Below are positions 1-7,812 of a stretch of 7,812 bases of DNA, one piece after another (the first letter of the stretch is position 1; every line of letters begins with the position of its first letter). Below the pieces are notes generated by a model. It did no database searches, had not been told where the DNA came from, and saw nothing but the letters and a program-made list of their open reading frames with translations. Origin of the DNA: a virus (Duplodnaviria; Heunggongvirae; Uroviricota; Caudoviricetes). The position numbers were made by a program, and so were the translations under genes. Location of the stretch: the IMG/VR virus record IMGVR_UViG_2711768009_000002. One strand, written 5' to 3'.

Positions 1-108
1 CTCCAATGACTAGTCTAAAAACTAGTATTAAGACTATCACTTATTTAAGTGATACTGGTTGTCTGGAGATTCAGGGGGCCAGTCTAGTAAGGCTGCGAGA
101 GGTGAATA

Positions 109-480
109 ATGTCGCCATCATTACGCAAGGCTGTTGCAGTTGCTATTGGTGGCGGGGCTGTTGCTATAGCATCTGTGTTAATCACTGGCCCAGGTGGTAA
201 CGATGGTCTGGAAGGTGTCAGCTACATACTATACAAAGATATCATTGGTGTATGGACTGTATGTCACGGACACACCGGAAAAGACATCATGCCTGGTAAA
301 ACGTATACCGAAGCAGAATGCAAAGCTCTCCTGAATAAAGACCTTGCCACTGTCGCCAGACAAATTAACCCGTACATCAAAGTCGATATACCGGAAACAA
401 CGCGCGGCGCTCTTTACTCGTTCGTTTACAACGTGGGCGCTGGCAATTTCAGAACATCGACGCTTCTTCGCAAAATAAAC
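109..480 (+). CDS. SAR (signal-anchor-release) endolysin, T4-lysozyme-like phage lysozyme; 3' end lost in the N-run
   Basis: ATG at 109 with GAGAGGTG RBS at 97-104. Translation [51 protein letters not shown]... has a Gly/Ala-rich weakly hydrophobic N-terminal SAR segment followed by a lysozyme core with E-x8-D-x5-T spacing ([17 protein letters not shown]). From memory it is near-identical to phage 21 R and E. coli prophage SAR lysozymes. The ORF runs into Ns at 481, so the true end is unseen (about 165 aa expected). Confidence 0.88.
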
Positions 481-784
481 CNNNNNNNNNNNNNNNNNNN
501 NNNNNNNNNNNNNNNNNNNNNNNNNNNNNNNNNNNNNNNNNNNNNNNNNNNNNNNNNNNNNNNNNNNNNNNNNNNNNNNNNNNNNNNNNNNNNNNNNNNN
601 NNNNNNNNNNNNNNNNNNNNNNNNNNNNNNNNNNNNNNNNNNNNNNNNNNNNNNNNNNNNNNNNNNNNNNNNNNNNNNNNNNNNNNNNNNNNNNNNNNNN
701 NNNNNNNNNNNNNNNNNNNNNNNNNNNNNNNNNNNNNNNNNNNNNNNNNNNNNNNNNNNNNNNNNNNNNNNNNNNNNNNNNNNN
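481..784. other. Run of 304 N (assembly gap or masked sequence)
   Basis: Directly visible as n characters. It hides the endolysin 3' end and the 5' ends of Rz and Rz1; its true length is unknown. Confidence 0.97.
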
Positions 785-967
785 AAATGCCCTGTGCCAT
801 CCTCAGCCGAAACCTCCAGCGCCTCCGGCATGGGCAATGATGCCACCGTCGAACTCTCTCCAGTTGCTGGACGAAACGTTCTCGGTATCCGGGACGGAAT
901 CATCAGCGACCAGACAGCATTGAGAATGCTTCAGGAGTACATCAGGATCCAATGCCTTGGGGGGTAG
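785..967 (+). CDS. Rz: i-spanin Rz, C-terminal fragment (5' end in gap)
   Basis: Frame open from the gap edge to TAG 965-967. Translation ...GIISDQTALRMLQEYIRIQCLGG has a Cys near the C-terminus, as recalled for lambda Rz. It sits directly downstream of the endolysin and contains an embedded +1-frame ORF, which is the classic Rz/Rz1 architecture. Confidence 0.6.
   Translation, partial: KCPVPSSAETSSASGMGNDATVELSPVAGRNVLGIRDGIISDQTALRMLQEYIRIQCLGG
786..923 (+). CDS. Rz1: o-spanin Rz1 lipoprotein, C-terminal fragment, embedded in the +1 frame of Rz
   Basis: +1 frame relative to Rz, open from the gap edge to TGA 921-923. Translation ...HPQPKPPAPPAWAMMPPSNSLQLLDE... is proline-rich and resembles the PPPPPAW core of lambda Rz1 (recalled, not searched). 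Confidence 0.6.
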   Translation, partial: NALCHPQPKPPAPPAWAMMPPSNSLQLLDETFSVSGTESSATRQH

Positions 968-1055
968 CGGTAATTTTACTCATTATCCTTCAAATCAGAT
1001 TCTGTTGTCAGAGGAATGGGGGAAGCTGGATTCGCAAGAGCTTTTTATGGGCAGT

Positions 1056-1565
1056 TTAGCTAAAAAAAGGCAACACGAAGCTAAAACTACCAACATAAAG
1101 TGCTGACCAGCTAGCAGCTGAAATCAGACTCACTGTATACACTTTCACTGGATGAAGTTGCAACATTCCTGCCACCAAAGGAGCAATATAACGCAGCACG
1201 GCGATAAAGCGCGAAGTGAAAAGTATTGACACAGAGTTATTTTGCAACTGAAGGCGAACCCGTTCTATTGTATTGGAACGGCTTGATATTATACATGCAA
1301 GTTGAGGGATATGCCCAATTATTATACCAAGATGGTAATTAACGATAGTACCGCACCATGCGCCACTCATGACCGTGATTCCAGCTTCCCATGGTGAAAG
1401 AGTCGTCTTGCTGACTGTAATTACAGTGGCCATCATAATTGATGCTGGTGGCAATATCGCCGAAATGAGTAAAGTGGATTTTGTGAACGCTATTATAAAA
1501 AGAAGCCCCCATAGGCGATATGGATGAAGTACAAAATAGTTCATCAAAGCATTTATCCACTCCAT
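1056..1565 (-). CDS. Small multi-pass inner-membrane protein, DedA/VTT-domain family (YqaA-like); prophage moron
   Basis: Minus-strand ORF with stop TAA (revcomp of 1056-1058) and ATG at 1565-1563 (the ORF track starts it 1 codon earlier at TTG 1568). A GAAGGAAAG RBS lies 8 nt upstream (revcomp of about 1570-1578). The protein is very hydrophobic (4-5 predicted TM helices) and contains FTSRFIAVLRYIAPLVAGM, matching the DedA-family RF[IL]xx[IV]R..xP.VAG motif, plus an upstream STLLISAILPPAS segment recalling the YqaA ATLLPGNSE region. The gene is visibly AT-richer than the flanking phage genes. Confidence 0.5.
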   Translation of the reverse strand: MEWINALMNYFVLHPYRLWGLLFIIAFTKSTLLISAILPPASIMMATVITVSKTTLSPWEAGITVMSGAWCGTIVNYHLGIIIGHIPQLACIISSRSNTIERVRLQLQNNSVSILFTSRFIAVLRYIAPLVAGMLQLHPVKVYTVSLISAASWSALYVGSFSFVLPFFS

Positions 1566-1762
1566 CAATGTCTTTCCTTCTGTGAATTTTTCTTTGCTAT
1601 TTAACCGTGATACGACTTAATTTAGGCTTAAACACCTTACATTTACAAGGTACTCCTGTGGGGGGCCCTGCCACGGAGCGTCGCAGGAGTGAGTGATGAG
1701 GAAGAATTAAAGCAACCTATTGTGACAGGCAGCGATAACAGTAAATCACAGGAAGCATAATC

Positions 1763-2527
1763 ATGGCAAAACCGGACTGGGAGGCCATCGAATCGGCATA
1801 CCGGGCCGGAGTCCTTAGCCTCCGTGATATAGGCGAGAAATACGGCGTTACAGAAGGGGCTATCAGGAAGAGGGCCAAAAAGCTTGGTTGGGCACGCAGT
1901 GGCGGTACGCAGGTTTGCAAAAATGGTACGCAAAAAAGGAAAGTGCGTACCAGCAGAAAGCCTGCCATTACTGGCCTTACACAAAAAAGTACGCAACTAA
2001 AAACAGAATCTACACCGGATACGAAACCGATACGCGGAATGCGTACCGATCCCCCGACTAACCCATTCCAACCCGGTAACCAGCAGGCATTAAAACACGG
2101 TGGTTATGCCCGTCGCCTTCTGCTCAAAGATGAGGTGATAGAGGACGCTAAAGCGTTGACGCTCGAGGACGAATTATTTCGCCTTCGTGCTAACAACCTT
2201 GTCGCTGCAGAGAATATTGGTCGGTGGTTGGTGTCGCTGGAAGATGCTAATGGGGACCAGGAAAGGAAGATGCTGATTGAAAATATCAGCGCCGCCGAGA
2301 AAGCAATGATGCGCAATACAGTTCGTATTGAGTCCATCGTTGGCACGCTTGCGACGGTAGGAAAAATATTTGCTGATACAGCCTACCGCAAGGCCGCCAC
2401 TGATAAGGTGTCTCTGGAGGCTGATCGTCTTCGCCGTGATGCAGGTATTGATGATGGCAATGGAGAGCGTGACCTCAATGACTTCTACTCTGACATCCAA
2501 ACCGACGCTGAATCCGGCTTTACGTAG
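1763..2527 (+). CDS. Terminase small subunit (N-terminal HTH DNA-binding domain)
   Basis: ATG 1763 with AGGAAG RBS at 1749-1754; stop TAG 2525-2527. The N-terminus DWEAIESAYRAGVLSLRDIGEKYGVTEGAIRKRAKKLGW is a typical terminase-small-subunit HTH, followed by a basic linker and a coiled-coil-like C-terminal region. It lies immediately upstream of, and overlaps, the terminase large subunit gene. Confidence 0.6.
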   Translation: MAKPDWEAIESAYRAGVLSLRDIGEKYGVTEGAIRKRAKKLGWARSGGTQVCKNGTQKRKVRTSRKPAITGLTQKSTQLKTESTPDTKPIRGMRTDPPTNPFQPGNQQALKHGGYARRLLLKDEVIEDAKALTLEDELFRLRANNLVAAENIGRWLVSLEDANGDQERKMLIENISAAEKAMMRNTVRIESIVGTLATVGKIFADTAYRKAATDKVSLEADRLRRDAGIDDGNGERDLNDFYSDIQTDAESGFT

Positions 2528-3881
2528 TTTCTGGACTATGCGGGCACGTAACAAAGTGCTTTATGGTGGTCGGTCATCGTCAAAATCATGGGATGCCGCT
2601 GGCATTGCCATATTTCTGTCGAATAAATACACCCTGCGTTTTTGTTGTGCCCGTCAGATCCAGAATAAAATCGAAGAGTCGGTGTATACCCTGCTCAAAA
2701 TTCAGATAGACAGGTTTGGTCTGCGGCACCGTTTCCGTATTCTGAACAACAAAATCATTAACCGGGTTACTGGCTCGGAATTTGTTTTTTATGGATTATG
2801 GCGCAACATCGAAGAAATTAAGTCACTGGAGGGGATCGATGTGTTGTGGCTGGAAGAAGCCCACGCACTGACGGAATACCAGTGGAAAATTCTGGAGCCA
2901 ACGATCCGTAAAGAGGGTTCGGAATGCTGGTTCATATTCAACCCCGGACTTGTTACTGATTTCGTCTGGCGCAACTTCGTTGTTGATCCGCCCGAAGGCA
3001 CTCTCATCCGCAAAATTAACTATGACGAAAATCCGTTTCTGTCTGACACCATGCTTAAGGTTATCGACGCGGCGCGACGCCGTGATCCGGATGGTTTTAA
3101 ACATGTGTATGAGGGCGTTCCGGAGTCTGATGATGATGCGGCAATCATCAAACTGTCTTGGATAGAAGCCGCAGTGGATGCGCACAAAACGTTAAATTTC
3201 GAACCCAGTGGAAGAAAGCGTATTGGCTTTGACGTGGCTGACAGTGGTACAGATAAGTGCGCTAACGTTTACCGTCACGGATCCGTTGTTTTCTGGGCCG
3301 ACGAATGGAAGGCCAAAGAAGATGAATTACTGAAGAGCTGCCAGCGTACTTATCAGGCGGCGCTGGAGCGTGAAGCAGATATTGTTTACGACTCTATCGG
3401 TGTTGGTGCGTCTGCCGGTGCTAAATTCTCTGAAATTAACGCTGACCGGAAGAGCGAGAACGCATACGCGCGACGTGTGAATTACCAGAGGTTTAACGCC
3501 GGTGCTGGTGTGCATGAGCCAGATGACGAGTACAACGGCATCCCCAACAAAGACTTTTTCGCAAATCTTAAGGCTCAGGCATGGTGGCTGGTGGCTGACC
3601 GTTTCAGAAATACGTTTAACGCCATTAACAACGGAGAACAGTATCCTGTGGATGAGCTGATCAGCATAGATTCTCGTTGTCCGTTGCTTGAAAAGCTGAA
3701 ACTGGAACTGACAACACCTCATCGTGATTTCGACCGTAACGGACGTGTGATGGTCGAAAGTAAAAAAGACCTCGCAAAACGCGAGATACCGTCACCAAAC
3801 GTTGCTGATGCATTCATTATGGCCTTCGCGCCAATCGATACATCGCTGGATATCTGGGAACAGCTGGGGAGACAGGCCTGA
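2478..3881 (+). CDS. Terminase large subunit, PBSX/Terminase_3-like (ATPase plus nuclease)
   Basis: Long ORF in frame 0 ending TGA 3879-3881. P-loop-like YGGRSSSKS and Walker B-like IDVLWLEEAH are present, with an N-terminal LNPALRSFW...ARNKVLYGG region typical of this family as I recall it. The start is uncertain: ATG 2478 is chosen (GGAG at 2462-2465), with alternatives 2451, 2460 and 2538. The ORF-track start at 2370 would overlap terS by 158 nt and is not favoured. Confidence 0.85.
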   Translation: MTSTLTSKPTLNPALRSFWTMRARNKVLYGGRSSSKSWDAAGIAIFLSNKYTLRFCCARQIQNKIEESVYTLLKIQIDRFGLRHRFRILNNKIINRVTGSEFVFYGLWRNIEEIKSLEGIDVLWLEEAHALTEYQWKILEPTIRKEGSECWFIFNPGLVTDFVWRNFVVDPPEGTLIRKINYDENPFLSDTMLKVIDAARRRDPDGFKHVYEGVPESDDDAAIIKLSWIEAAVDAHKTLNFEPSGRKRIGFDVADSGTDKCANVYRHGSVVFWADEWKAKEDELLKSCQRTYQAALEREADIVYDSIGVGASAGAKFSEINADRKSENAYARRVNYQRFNAGAGVHEPDDEYNGIPNKDFFANLKAQAWWLVADRFRNTFNAINNGEQYPVDELISIDSRCPLLEKLKLELTTPHRDFDRNGRVMVESKKDLAKREIPSPNVADAFIMAFAPIDTSLDIWEQLGRQA

Positions 3882-5347
3882 TGGCACGAAACAAACAAGC
3901 CCTGCGGCGAACTGTGCAGGCCACAGCTGATGGTTATGAGAATTTTATTGCCCGCGTAGGGATGCAGACACCTAACCAGCACTCAGCATCCACCTACCGG
4001 GCTAATTTCACCAGTCGTAACCGCATGCTGGTGGAATGGTCCTATCGTTCATCCTAGATCATCGGCGAAGCAGTCGATGCTATCCCGGATGATATGACCC
4101 GCAAAGGCATTCGCATCACTTCGGAAATTGATGCAAAAGATCGTGGCATTCTCGAATCACAACTGGATGAGTTGCAAATCTGGGATGCGCTGAATGACGT
4201 GCTGAAATGGTCGCGCCTCTACGGCGGCGCGGTGGGTTTCATCATGATTGAGGGGTAGGCACCAATGACCCCGCTGCGACCCGAAACCATCGGTAAGGGC
4301 AAGTTTAAGGGGATTCTCCCGCTCGACCGCTGGATGGTCGACCCGGCACTGACCCGCCGCATTAAAGATATGGGGCCGGACCTGGGTAAACCTGAGTTTT
4401 ACGATGTGGTGACCACAGCAACGGGAATTCCTGCCTGGCGCATTCATCACAGTCGCCTGATTCGCTTTGATGGCGTCACGTTGCCATTTCAGCAGAAGAT
4501 GACCGAGAACGAATGGGGAATGTCGGTTGTAGAGCGTATCTGGGATCGTCTTACCGCGTTCGACAGCGCTACTGTCGGCGCGGCGCAGCTGGTCTACAAG
4601 GCGCATTTGCGTACCTACAGCGTGGAGAAGCTACGCGAGCTTATCGCACTTGGTGGTCCTGCGTATGAAGCGTTGCTGAAGAATATCGACCTGATTCGAC
4701 AGTTCCAGAGTAATGAAGGCATGACGCTCATGGACTCGCGGGATAAGTTTGAAACCCATCAGTACAGCTTCAGTGGTCTGGATGACATCCTTTCGCAGTT
4801 TGTAGAACAGATTAGTGGCGCTGTTGGTATCCCACTGGTGCGGTTGTTCGGACAGTCCCCGAAAGGATTTTCTACCGGTGATGCAGACCTTGCCAACTAT
4901 TACGATCGCATCAGTTCGTTGCAGGAGAGGCGTTTACGTCTTCCGGTGCGGCGGATACTGGACATCATGCATCGTTCGGAACTTGGCAAGCCGCTGCCGG
5001 ACGATTTCACGTTTGAGTTTAACCCGCTCTGGCAAATGTCTGATGTCGATCGCTCAACGGTGGCGTTAAACACCACCAACGCAATCAGTACGGCGCTGGG
5101 TGATGGTCTGATGACACTGAAAGCCGCTATGACTGATTTGCGAGAAAATTCTGACGTAACCGGCATCGGGGCATCCATTACCGACGAGGACATCGAGAAT
5201 GCCGAAGATGAAGCGCCGCCCGGCATCGGCGAACCTGATGACGAACCGCAGGAGCCGTCAGGCGGAAATCCGGTATCGAACCAGCCTACGCAGGATAGCG
5301 AGGGCGGTCGGAGACATCGTAAATGGTCGCTACGATGGTTCAAATGA
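3881..5347 (+). pseudogene. Portal protein gene interrupted by two in-frame TAG (amber) codons at 4055-4057 and 4256-4258
   Basis: ATG 3881 overlaps the terL stop (cTGATGg). A single reading frame runs 3881-5347 as 58 codons, TAG, 66 codons, TAG, 362 codons, then TGA 5345-5347, giving 488 codon positions, a normal portal size. The position between terL and the MuF-like gene is the canonical portal slot. Translation verified by hand: ...LVEWSYRSS*IIGEAVDAIPDDMTRKG...GFIMIEG*APMTPLRPETIGKGKF... Confidence 0.7.
4265..5347 (+). CDS. Portal protein, largest uninterrupted segment (360 codons from the first ATG after the second TAG); what an ORF caller would report
   Basis: ORF-track entry 4265..5347 in the same frame as 3881. 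There is no convincing RBS before ATG 4265 (upstream is ...attgaggggtaggcaccaATG), so I regard it as the distal part of the interrupted portal gene rather than an independent start. Confidence 0.45.
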   Translation: MTPLRPETIGKGKFKGILPLDRWMVDPALTRRIKDMGPDLGKPEFYDVVTTATGIPAWRIHHSRLIRFDGVTLPFQQKMTENEWGMSVVERIWDRLTAFDSATVGAAQLVYKAHLRTYSVEKLRELIALGGPAYEALLKNIDLIRQFQSNEGMTLMDSRDKFETHQYSFSGLDDILSQFVEQISGAVGIPLVRLFGQSPKGFSTGDADLANYYDRISSLQERRLRLPVRRILDIMHRSELGKPLPDDFTFEFNPLWQMSDVDRSTVALNTTNAISTALGDGLMTLKAAMTDLRENSDVTGIGASITDEDIENAEDEAPPGIGEPDDEPQEPSGGNPVSNQPTQDSEGGRRHRKWSLRWFK

Positions 5348-5981
5348 CAGTATCACGGAAATTATTGCGGCGCTGGAGCGTTACAGTGAAATCATCACCC
5401 CCTGGGCGACAAAGGTCGCGGAAAACTTTACTGCGGACCTAACCCGGCAGAACGAGAAAGTTTGGCGGCAACACAGCAAGAACATCAGTCGCGAGCTCCG
5501 CAATCTTGTGGAAAGCGCTCCTGTGGGCCAGGTGATGCAATCCATCATCGCCGAACAGGTCAAGTACATCAAATCTCTGCCTCTCGAGGCCGCAGACAGG
5601 GTGTACGACATCCAGAACAAAGCGATAGAGGCTGTTGTCACCGGTGGTCGGGCGGAGCAGTTTGCTAAAGAGATTGCATCTACCGGCGATGTTGCTAAGT
5701 CTAGGGCCGATCTGATTGCCCGAACGGAACTGGGAAGAGCAACGGGCGCGCTGGATATGGCCCGAGCGATAGCTATTGGCTCGGATGGTTATATTTGGCG
5801 TACAGCCGATGATGGCGATGTCCGAGATTCCCACGATCACATGAAAGGTAAATTCGTCCGCTGGGATTCACCTCCAACTTTGGACGGCATGACCGGCCAC
5901 GCGGGCGAGCTGCCAAACTGCCGCTGCTATAAAGAGATCGTGTTTGTTCGCGTTCCATTCGCAATGAAAAGGGCAGCATAA
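5199..5981 (+). CDS. Head morphogenesis protein, SPP1 gp7 / phage Mu F family
   Basis: The C-terminal half has the family hallmarks LIARTELGRA, DDGDVRDSHDHMKG and ELPNCRCY (ARTE, D-x-R-x-S/R-H, NCRC). Stop TAA 5979-5981. Start ATG 5199 has a GAGGA RBS at 5186-5190; alternatives are 5208 and 5238. No in-frame GTG/TTG start exists nearer the portal stop, so the 5' end overlaps the portal 3' end by at least 110 nt. Confidence 0.8.
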   Translation: MPKMKRRPASANLMTNRRSRQAEIRYRTSLRRIARAVGDIVNGRYDGSNDSITEIIAALERYSEIITPWATKVAENFTADLTRQNEKVWRQHSKNISRELRNLVESAPVGQVMQSIIAEQVKYIKSLPLEAADRVYDIQNKAIEAVVTGGRAEQFAKEIASTGDVAKSRADLIARTELGRATGALDMARAIAIGSDGYIWRTADDGDVRDSHDHMKGKFVRWDSPPTLDGMTGHAGELPNCRCYKEIVFVRVPFAMKRAA

Positions 5982-5984
5982 CCC

Positions 5985-7205
5985 ATGAAATACTTTTTTG
6001 AGACCAGGCTCGGGGAAACCCGATACCGCCTGGCTGACGGCTCGTTGCTGTGCAAAGACGTGCCGATAGGACGAACAGGTAAGCAGCTCTATGGTGCTGA
6101 TGACCTGCCAAAACTGAAACCCGATAAGTTCGGTGAAATAGTCGTCACGCGTTCTCCTGAGCAGGTATTCCATCCGGCCACGCTTGCCTCATTCGAAGGG
6201 ATGAGCATCACGATCCTGCATCCTGAAGATGAAAACGGGAATGTGCGGCTGGTAAATCCCGAGAACTGGAAAGAGCTTGCTGTCGGGCACCTCCAGAATG
6301 TCCGGCGCGGGACGGGTGAGCAGTCTGATTTGATGCTGGCTGACCTTATCGTCAAAGACGAAAGCGCCATTCAGCTTATCGAAGATGGCCTGCGCGAAGT
6401 GTCGTGCGGCTATGACGCGGAGTACGAGCAGACCGAGCCAGGTAAAGCCGAGCAGGTCGATATTACCGGAAACCATGTGGCTCTTGTCCCTAAAGGCAGA
6501 GCCGGAAATCGTTGTGCAATTGGAGACAGAGACACAATGGCAAATCAAAAGAAAAACTGGTGGAACCGCATGCGTGCGGCCATCAAGACAGGAGATGCCG
6601 ACACCATGAACGAACTGGTGGAGTCGGCTCCCGCATCGGTTACAGGAGATGAGGGGGATTTGCCGCAGGGCGTTAATCTCAACATCAACCTGTCCCCGCA
6701 GCAACCACTACCGGACAAAGCACCAGAGATGGGCGGAGATCCAACCGGCGACAGTGATGATGACCTCAAAACATTACTGAAAGCCCTGCTGGCTAAGCTG
6801 GAAAGAAATGCCACGGGCGATAACGATAATAAGCCTGACGATAATCCGACCGGTGACGGCGAGGACGATGAAGAGGAAACCACGATTACTGGTGACTCAG
6901 CCTGGCGTGCCGAAGTTATCGTTCCGGGTATCGATCTGAGCCGTAAGATGAAACCGACCGCGTTCAAACGCGAGGTTCTGGCTTCTGCTGACAAAACGCT
7001 GGTTCGCCAGATAGTCGGTGATGCGGATATCCGCAAATTACCGAAACAATCGGTCGACATGGCGTTTAATGCCGTGTCTGAGGTTGCCAAAGGGCGAAAC
7101 ACCCGCGCCACCACCGGCGATGCACAGCGCCTAAACATGGGCATGACCAGTATCGCTTCCCTGAACAAACAAAACGCTGAATTCTGGGCAAACCGTAAAG
7201 GGTAA
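5985..7205 (+). CDS. Head scaffolding-like protein (406 aa; N-terminal globular domain plus acidic low-complexity linker and C-terminal helical region), possibly DUF2213-type
   Basis: ATG 5985 lies 3 nt after the MuF stop; stop TAA 7203-7205. The assignment rests on position between the MuF-like and small head protein genes and on the acidic D/E/G/T-rich central region (GDPTGDSDDD...DNPTGDGEDDEEE) typical of scaffold-like proteins. No catalytic motif was recognised with confidence. Confidence 0.5.
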   Translation: MKYFFETRLGETRYRLADGSLLCKDVPIGRTGKQLYGADDLPKLKPDKFGEIVVTRSPEQVFHPATLASFEGMSITILHPEDENGNVRLVNPENWKELAVGHLQNVRRGTGEQSDLMLADLIVKDESAIQLIEDGLREVSCGYDAEYEQTEPGKAEQVDITGNHVALVPKGRAGNRCAIGDRDTMANQKKNWWNRMRAAIKTGDADTMNELVESAPASVTGDEGDLPQGVNLNINLSPQQPLPDKAPEMGGDPTGDSDDDLKTLLKALLAKLERNATGDNDNKPDDNPTGDGEDDEEETTITGDSAWRAEVIVPGIDLSRKMKPTAFKREVLASADKTLVRQIVGDADIRKLPKQSVDMAFNAVSEVAKGRNTRATTGDAQRLNMGMTSIASLNKQNAEFWANRKG

Positions 7206-7208
7206 AAA

Positions 7209-7715
7209 ATGAATAATGTATTTCTGTACCGGATGCCTGTTGGCATTGCCGGGGCTGTCTCTCGCCCGCAGGACTTAACCGTCGAACCGGTGGTCCTTAA
7301 ATCCGATAACGCCTTCGCTGCCTATGGCCTGGCTGGTAAATACGATGATGACGGTTTTTTCGTGCCGCTGGCAGATGGTGATACCGCAGACAAGGTGAAG
7401 GGGATCTACGTGCGCCCTTATCCGACCACGTCGCAGCCGGACATGGTTCGCCAGGTGGGAACAGGCAAGAACTTCCCGGGCGACGCCATGAAGCGTGGCT
7501 ACGTGACCGTTAATCTCGGTTCTGATTTTGATGCCAGCACTATCAAAAAAGGCGATCCGGTATACGTTGTCGTCTCCACTGATGAATCCATCAAAGTGCC
7601 GCTGGGTGGATTCATGTCCACGTCAGTCAGTGGCAAAAACGTGGTGCTGACCAACGCTGAATTCACAGGTGCCGGTGATGCTGACGGCAATGCAGAAATT
7701 TCCTGGAAGATTTAA
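7209..7715 (+). CDS. Small head protein, probable decoration/cement-type protein preceding the major capsid gene
   Basis: ATG 7209 lies 3 nt after the scaffold stop; stop TAA 7713-7715. The 168-aa Gly/Val/Asp-rich, beta-rich-looking sequence sits in the slot that head decoration proteins occupy in SPP1-like head modules. Assignment is by position and composition only. Confidence 0.4.
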   Translation: MNNVFLYRMPVGIAGAVSRPQDLTVEPVVLKSDNAFAAYGLAGKYDDDGFFVPLADGDTADKVKGIYVRPYPTTSQPDMVRQVGTGKNFPGDAMKRGYVTVNLGSDFDASTIKKGDPVYVVVSTDESIKVPLGGFMSTSVSGKNVVLTNAEFTGAGDADGNAEISWKI

Positions 7716-7730
7716 GGAACAGACGAATGA

Positions 7731-7812
7731 GGTGATGCTGCCAACTTACTGATTTAGTGTATGATGGTGTTTTTGAGGTGCTCCAGTGGCTTCTGTTTCT
7801 ATCAGCTGTCCC
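7731..7812 (+). mobile_element. IS1 insertion sequence, left end (terminal inverted repeat plus start of insA); continues beyond the window
   Basis: GGTGATGCTGCCAACTTACTGATTTAGTGTATGATGGTGTTTTTGAGGTGCTCCAGTGGCTTCTGTTTCTATCAGCTGTCCC matches the canonical IS1 left terminus as I recall it, including the GTG-initiated insA reading frame (M)ASVSISCP. Confidence 0.85.
7786..7812 (+). CDS. insA: IS1 InsA, first 9 codons (partial; continues beyond window)
   Basis: GTG 7786 followed by GCT TCT GTT TCT ATC AGC TGT CCC, giving (M)ASVSISCP, the known InsA N-terminus, inside the IS1 left end. Confidence 0.75.

Follow-up and report, generated by a model that had tools for sequence, protein, structure and literature searches.

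IS1 at the start of a major capsid gene as the probable left edge of a deletion in a cryptic Shigella sonnei prophage

Here we describe a 7,812-nucleotide stretch of viral DNA (Caudoviricetes; IMG/VR record IMGVR_UViG_2711768009_000002), hereafter referred to as the window, which is a 7.6-kb island of dead prophage lying between a copy of IS2 on its left and a copy of IS1 on its right (Table 1). Between the two elements lie the remains of a lysis module, a terminase and portal region and a series of head genes. Readable sequence amounts to 7,509 bases (1-481 and 785-7812). Both edges of the window fall 80-odd bases inside a repeat, which suggests a short-read scaffold that was broken at IS copies.

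Table 1. Features of the window (L004, intact prophage locus of Escherichia coli FDAARGOS_944)
Feature	Position	Strand	Remarks
IS2 end, terminal 86 bp, ends ...GGGGGCCAGTCTA	1-86	-	Left boundary of the prophage remnant
Class II holin gene, last 22 bp, truncated by IS2	87-108	+	Holin CDS = L004 6044-6259
Lysozyme gene rrrD, readable 5' part	109-481	+	rrrD = L004 6259-6756; PF00959 in S. sonnei loci
303 N	482-784	.	Stands for 409 bp in complete genomes: rrrD 3' end and 5' part of the Rz-type lysis gene
Rz-type lysis protein gene, readable 3' part	785-967	+	CDS = L004 6753-7223; PF03245 in S. sonnei loci
DedA/VTT-domain membrane protein gene, intact	1056-1568	-	Between lysis and terminase modules; no amino-acid differences from the intact prophage
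Hypothetical 254-aa protein	1763-2527	+	Upstream of large terminase
Terminase large subunit (PF04466), intact, one substitution A431D	2478-3881	+	
Portal gene (DUF1073 / PF06381), pseudogene	3881-5347	+	W59* (G>A at 4056), Q126* (C>T at 4256); split ORFs in ORF list
Mu F-like head morphogenesis protein, intact	5238-5981	+	
DUF2213 (PF09979) head protein, 406 aa, intact	5985-7205	+	
Capsid cement / minor capsid protein, 168 aa	7209-7715	+	PF23982, PF22758; identical to the intact prophage
Major capsid gene remnant	7714-7730	+	AAGGAA 7714-7719, ATG 7727-7729, first base of codon 2 (A) 7730; from alignment with the FDAARGOS_944 and SEN34 alleles
IS1, first 82 bp	7731-7812	+	Left inverted repeat from 7731, insA GTG 7786; window ends inside the element

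The left boundary was placed by comparison with a Shigella sonnei locus and with an intact prophage. Window positions 1-481 correspond to 2687-3167 of the locus in S. sonnei 53G (L008), in which the stretch 1380-2790 matches an 'IS3-like element IS2 family transposase' at 98-99%, to about 2774-2777. Homology to the intact prophage begins at window position 87 (L004 6237), with the final 22 bp of the holin gene. The IS2 end itself we take to lie exactly at base 86, in part from the known terminal sequence of IS2. The run of N further on differs in length from the sequence that it replaces (303 versus 409), which points to a scaffold gap and not to a mask that preserves length. An ORF of 243 aa (109-840) that could be read as a lysozyme-Rz fusion spans these 303 N and was rejected as an artefact.

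The DedA/VTT-domain gene is probably a cargo gene ('moron'), and the position of the 254-aa protein suggests that it is a putative small terminase subunit. The two nonsense codons of the portal gene, W59* and Q126*, represent independent mutations and are common to all of the S. sonnei loci and to one further IMG/VR contig (L018, described below). With its lysis module truncated by IS2 and two nonsense codons in its portal gene, the remnant is unable to make particles in any case, whatever happened at its right-hand end.

At that end, the stop codon TAA (7713-7715) closes the 168-aa ORF of the cement gene, as seen both in the sequence and in the ORF list. The ribosome-binding site AAGGAA is placed 7 nt ahead of an ATG that opens the frame ATG AGG TGA, or M R stop, and the left end of IS1, GGTGATGCTGCCAACTTACTGATTTAGTG..., begins at 7731. 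The 82 bases from there to the edge of the window correspond to IS1 bases 1-82; they are identical at all 82 positions to the IS1 of phage P1 (megablast against phage records, E about 1e-34) and, again over 82/82, to the IS1 at the same locus in S. sonnei 53G. This match is far beyond chance. The P1 record places the start of its mobile_element 'insertion sequence:IS1' at the base opposite window 7731 in the alignment, and insA begins 55 bases further in; correspondingly, the GTG at window 7786 (GTG GCT TCT...) opens the InsA N-terminus, VASVSISCP. The left inverted repeat of IS1 is present, with the terminal sequence GGTGATGCTGCCAACTTACTGAT... at the end of the element. From the other side, homology to intact prophages, drawn from 335 complete E. 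coli genomes, four vB_EcoM phages and SEN34, runs unbroken to 7730 and ends exactly there. The initial annotation of the window had called the element IS1 and had set its left end one nucleotide after the start codon; the identification stands, and the coordinates are correct to the base by our reading of the sequence and by the P1 annotation.

The gene that IS1 abuts was identified from its intact alleles. The aligned ATG is the annotated start of a 'DUF2184 domain-containing protein' in E. coli FDAARGOS_944 and of a 'major head protein' in SEN34, and the intact allele continues ATG ATT ACT TTT GAT. The intact 313-aa protein (L001:3928-4869) matches PF09950, 'Major capsid protein', with 294.7 bits against a cutoff of 26.8 (E = 6.8e-88). 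IS1 is thus placed after the first base of codon 2, that is, after base +4 of the major capsid gene, and the assignment that had been made from synteny is borne out by the intact allele.

Intact relatives were found in the FDAARGOS_944 prophage, in the phages vB_EcoM-606R2, vB_EcoM-689R2, vB_EcoM-611R5 and vB_EcoM-683R1, and in SEN34 (Brunovirus), all of which share the order terminase, DUF1073 portal, Mu F, DUF2213, cement and PF09950 capsid. Identity to the window is 99.9% for FDAARGOS_944, 98.5% for the four Escherichia vB_EcoM phages and 82-83% for Salmonella phage SEN34. The prophage is a SEN34-like or vB_EcoM-606R2-like temperate myovirus. The capsid gene and the complete tail module are retained in these relatives, whereas the copy in the window stops at base +4 of the capsid gene, its portal gene is inactivated and IS2 cuts into its left side. 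The right end of the FDAARGOS_944 prophage also carries ipaHb, a T3SS effector gene (L004 30761-32587), inside the block that is deleted in S. sonnei (see below). The presence of ipaHb in the intact prophage makes FDAARGOS_943 and FDAARGOS_944, both filed as E. coli, look Shigella- or EIEC-like.

The window stops 82 bases into IS1. Its right side was read from public contigs that encode exactly the 168-aa protein of the window, and the flank beyond it from genomes identical over the rest of the window. The junction is carried by five finished chromosomes (CP023645, CP045524, HE616528, CP049185 and CP019689), each with the gene order of the window followed by IS1. Two of these are S. sonnei 53G (HE616528; lineage II) and S. 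sonnei 75/02 (CP019689; lineage IIIc) (PMC5447701). The other three are treated as S. sonnei because they show the same arrangement of IS2, IS1 and genes. Window positions 1-481 are 100% identical in all five, and positions 785-7812 are 100% identical in three (53G, 75/02 and CP023645) and one base off in two. In the initial annotation, IS1 density of this kind had been called typical of Shigella and some E. coli lineages; the pointer to Shigella was right, as the complete identity of the readable window to 53G and 75/02 shows.

In each of these five chromosomes IS1 measures 768 bp, the length that had been anticipated, and in the S. sonnei loci that match the window it ends ...GGAGTCATTACC, the two ends forming imperfect inverted repeats. 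Both insA and insB are open in all five, with the A6C frameshift motif AAAAAAC at IS1 position 307; in 53G, InsA has 91 aa and a single difference from the InsA of P1. The called genes bear the Pfam families PF03811, PF12759 and PF03400. By sequence, the element is complete and apparently functional. Relative to the IS1 of P1, whose first 82 bp are identical, the 768-bp S. sonnei copy differs at 11 positions. Position 194 of the element (L008 10523-11290) is G in 53G and T in four other loci (L005, L006, L011 and L013), a difference that could be a lineage marker or the result of gene conversion between IS1 copies.

What lies beyond the right end of IS1 is the same in all five chromosomes, namely AACAGGGGGATTTACC ATG CTT ATT GGC TAT GTA CGC. 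This sequence, AACAGGGGGATTTACCATGCTTATTGGC, corresponds in the intact prophage to L004 33062 onward. At the right edge of the prophage stands a truncated DNA invertase gene, followed by pgl and ybhD, and position 33062 lies 16 bp upstream of it; the 43-aa product of the invertase remnant gives a weak Resolvase N-terminal (PF00239-like) match below the Pfam cut-off. Compared with the intact prophage, the five chromosomes lack L004 13987-33061, a block of 19,075 bp if the prophage of the S. sonnei ancestor is assumed to have been colinear with that of FDAARGOS_944. The lost block comprises the major capsid gene from its fifth base, the head-completion, neck, sheath and tube, tape-measure, baseplate and tail-fibre genes, and ipaHb. 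In the five genomes the two 9-mers that flank IS1 differ from each other, being GACGAATGA on the left and AACAGGGGG on the right, and there is no target-site duplication. In this the element is unlike typical IS1 copies, one of its flanks having been lost in the deletion.

Several readings of the left junction have to be weighed against this right flank. The initial annotation had taken IS1 for a simple insertion into an otherwise complete prophage, bordered by an 8-9 bp duplication, with the capsid gene resuming in frame behind the element and the insertion as the sole inactivating event. IS1 normally makes duplications of 8-9 bp, a habit that counts in favour of such an insertion, and the left junction alone is compatible with it. 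The right junction would then consist of the IS1 end, 8-10 bp of ...ACGAATGA and then TTACTTTTGATCAGG, and the allele with a 9-bp duplication would read IS1-GACGAATGA-TTACTTTTGAT; a search for the predicted right junction, with duplications of 8-10 bp allowed, was negative in GTDB species representatives, in IMG/VR and in JGI metagenomes. All five chromosomes that carry the junction have the other right flank, however, in which the expected repeat of GACGAATGA is replaced by AACAGGGGG and the invertase remnant and pgl stand where the capsid gene should continue. Since no capsid-like ORF resumes after the element, a finding that the initial annotation itself had named as decisive, the insertion model fails. 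Nor can one simple insertion be held to have ended virion production on its own, with about 19 kb of morphogenesis genes gone, two stops in the portal gene and IS2 cutting the left side; with the portal stops and the IS2 truncation, the phage is dead regardless. We consider this reading very improbable. Even if it were correct, the duplicated GACGAATGA would rebuild an ATG in front of TTACT..., leaving the capsid ORF whole and only its Shine-Dalgarno sequence displaced. The frame M R stop, which had been presented as the fate of the gene, is therefore not its fate even under a simple insertion with a 9-bp duplication, after which a complete capsid ORF would have lain downstream of the element, cut off from its ribosome-binding site. 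More generally, a 9-bp IS1 duplication that contains a start codon would not truncate the ORF.

It could also be asked whether there is an IS1 at this place at all, as the contig end might have been misjoined to, or have run into, a collapsed IS1 repeat. Starting 86 bases inside IS2, ending 82 bases inside IS1 and containing a run of N, the window resembles a short-read scaffold that breaks off in repeats. But the junction recurs, exact to the base, in five independently finished chromosomes and in four IMG/VR contigs (L015-L018), and we rejected an assembly artefact, to which we give virtually no chance, on the strength of the five closed chromosomes. A different matter is whether the right end of IS1 in the source strain is joined elsewhere in the chromosome, as it could be if IS1 copies had recombined after the original deletion and caused an inversion or translocation. 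Such an arrangement is seen in L016 (IMGVR_UViG_2671180338_000008, 1-2347), in which the identical junction of cement gene and IS1 and the full IS1 are followed by unrelated sequence rich in IS3/IS629, the right flank reading CACATGCTG; IS elements are documented to rearrange Shigella genomes at high rates (PMC8072062). L016 is a single draft-derived contig, though, whose flank represents either a later rearrangement by recombination between copies of IS1 or a misassembly at this repeat, and the invertase/pgl flank is found in all five closed chromosomes, which come from two lineages. We regard a different flank in the source strain as unlikely. The remaining contigs bear on the surroundings of the junction. 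L015 and L017 are colinear with S. sonnei 53G over the length that each covers. L018 (IMGVR_UViG_2734482572_000004, 7314-9300) shares with the window the IS1 junction and both portal stops; in place of IS2, its upstream part has an intact holin gene and a gene for a 373-aa protein that resembles a DNA methyltransferase by sequence motifs. The 5' end of its lysozyme gene is mosaic, with 21 clustered mismatches, which suggests recombination with the lysis cassette of another prophage. These variants underline that the sequence on one side of an IS is no guide to that on the other.

Taken together, the IS1 of the window very probably marks the left edge of an IS1-associated deletion within a cryptic S. 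sonnei prophage integrated next to pgl. That judgement combines the junctions, the missing DNA and the absent duplication, all of which are read from the genomes, with the way in which the deletion arose, which we infer. The genes from capsid to fibres, together with ipaHb, have been removed as one block. In one route (a), an IS1 resident at one endpoint would have undergone intramolecular transposition, giving rise to an adjacent deletion; in the other (b), two IS1 copies in the same orientation, one at each endpoint, would have recombined and looped out the intervening DNA. Both routes lead to the same final structure, by which alone they cannot be separated. They would differ in the ancestor: had insertion at the capsid site come first and an adjacent deletion followed, the ancestor would show the cement gene-IS1 junction together with IS1-GACGAATGATTAC, and with recombination between two IS1 copies it would show also GTCTTGTT(AACAGGGGG)-IS1 left end and IS1-invertase. 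An intermediate allele of this kind, with IS1 at one or both endpoints of an otherwise intact prophage, was not found in E. coli RefSeq, GTDB representatives, IMG/VR or JGI metagenomes. The left junction had no match in GTDB representative genomes, and neither the left nor the right junction occurs in any complete E. coli RefSeq genome; among the latter, the right-flank sequence is present only in FDAARGOS_943 and FDAARGOS_944, in both without IS1 at that place. Because the junction is common to S. sonnei lineages II and III, it is older than their split.

Deletions of this type are familiar. The classical IS1 'adjacent deletion' arises by intramolecular transposition of IS1. Deletions promoted by IS1 or by recombination between IS copies, both described from the gal region of E. 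coli and widespread in Shigella, likewise leave a single IS1 at a novel joint, with a block lost on one side and no duplication, and the present case does not differ from them in kind; what is particular to it are the endpoints, base +4 of the capsid gene and a point 16 bp upstream of the invertase remnant. IS1 accounts for the largest share of IS insertions in Shigella, in which gene interruption, deletions and rearrangements mediated by IS elements are documented (PMC7373316, PMC8072062). The locus is one more case of IS1 expansion eroding prophages and neighbouring genes in S. sonnei, a routine IS1-associated deletion and prophage decay in an IS-rich Shigella that is already contained in published, annotated S. 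sonnei genomes, and its value lies mainly in correct annotation. Where a contig breaks off inside an IS, a simple insertion cannot be assumed from the one visible end; in this case the second end falls 19 kb further along the ancestral map, and in one assembly it falls somewhere else entirely. The deletion may also have been one step in shaping the chromosomal ipaH repertoire of S. sonnei, ipaHb having been lost relative to the closest intact prophage.

By joining the strong ribosome-binding site and the ATG of the capsid gene to the IS1 end, the junction creates a minigene, AAGGAA-N7-ATG AGG TGA, of two codons, the second of which is a rare arginine codon. This frame of Shine-Dalgarno sequence, ATG, AGG and TGA is an accidental by-product of the junction. 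The bar minigenes of phage lambda sequester peptidyl-tRNA, and the putative minigene at the junction is formally alike. If the late operon were transcribed, it could conceivably tax tRNA-Arg(CCU) or influence the expression of IS1 insA, through ribosomes and read-through into the left inverted repeat, although we think either effect extremely improbable.

A second IS1 lies 2.6 kb downstream of the first in S. sonnei 53G (L008 13888-14655), in inverted orientation and with 2 mismatches to it over 768 bases. At this point ybhH, ybhI and approximately the first 95 bp of ybhJ (roughly L004 35660-38479) are missing, with the second IS1 in their place, and the two inverted copies bracket the invertase remnant, pgl and ybhD in the manner of a composite transposon.
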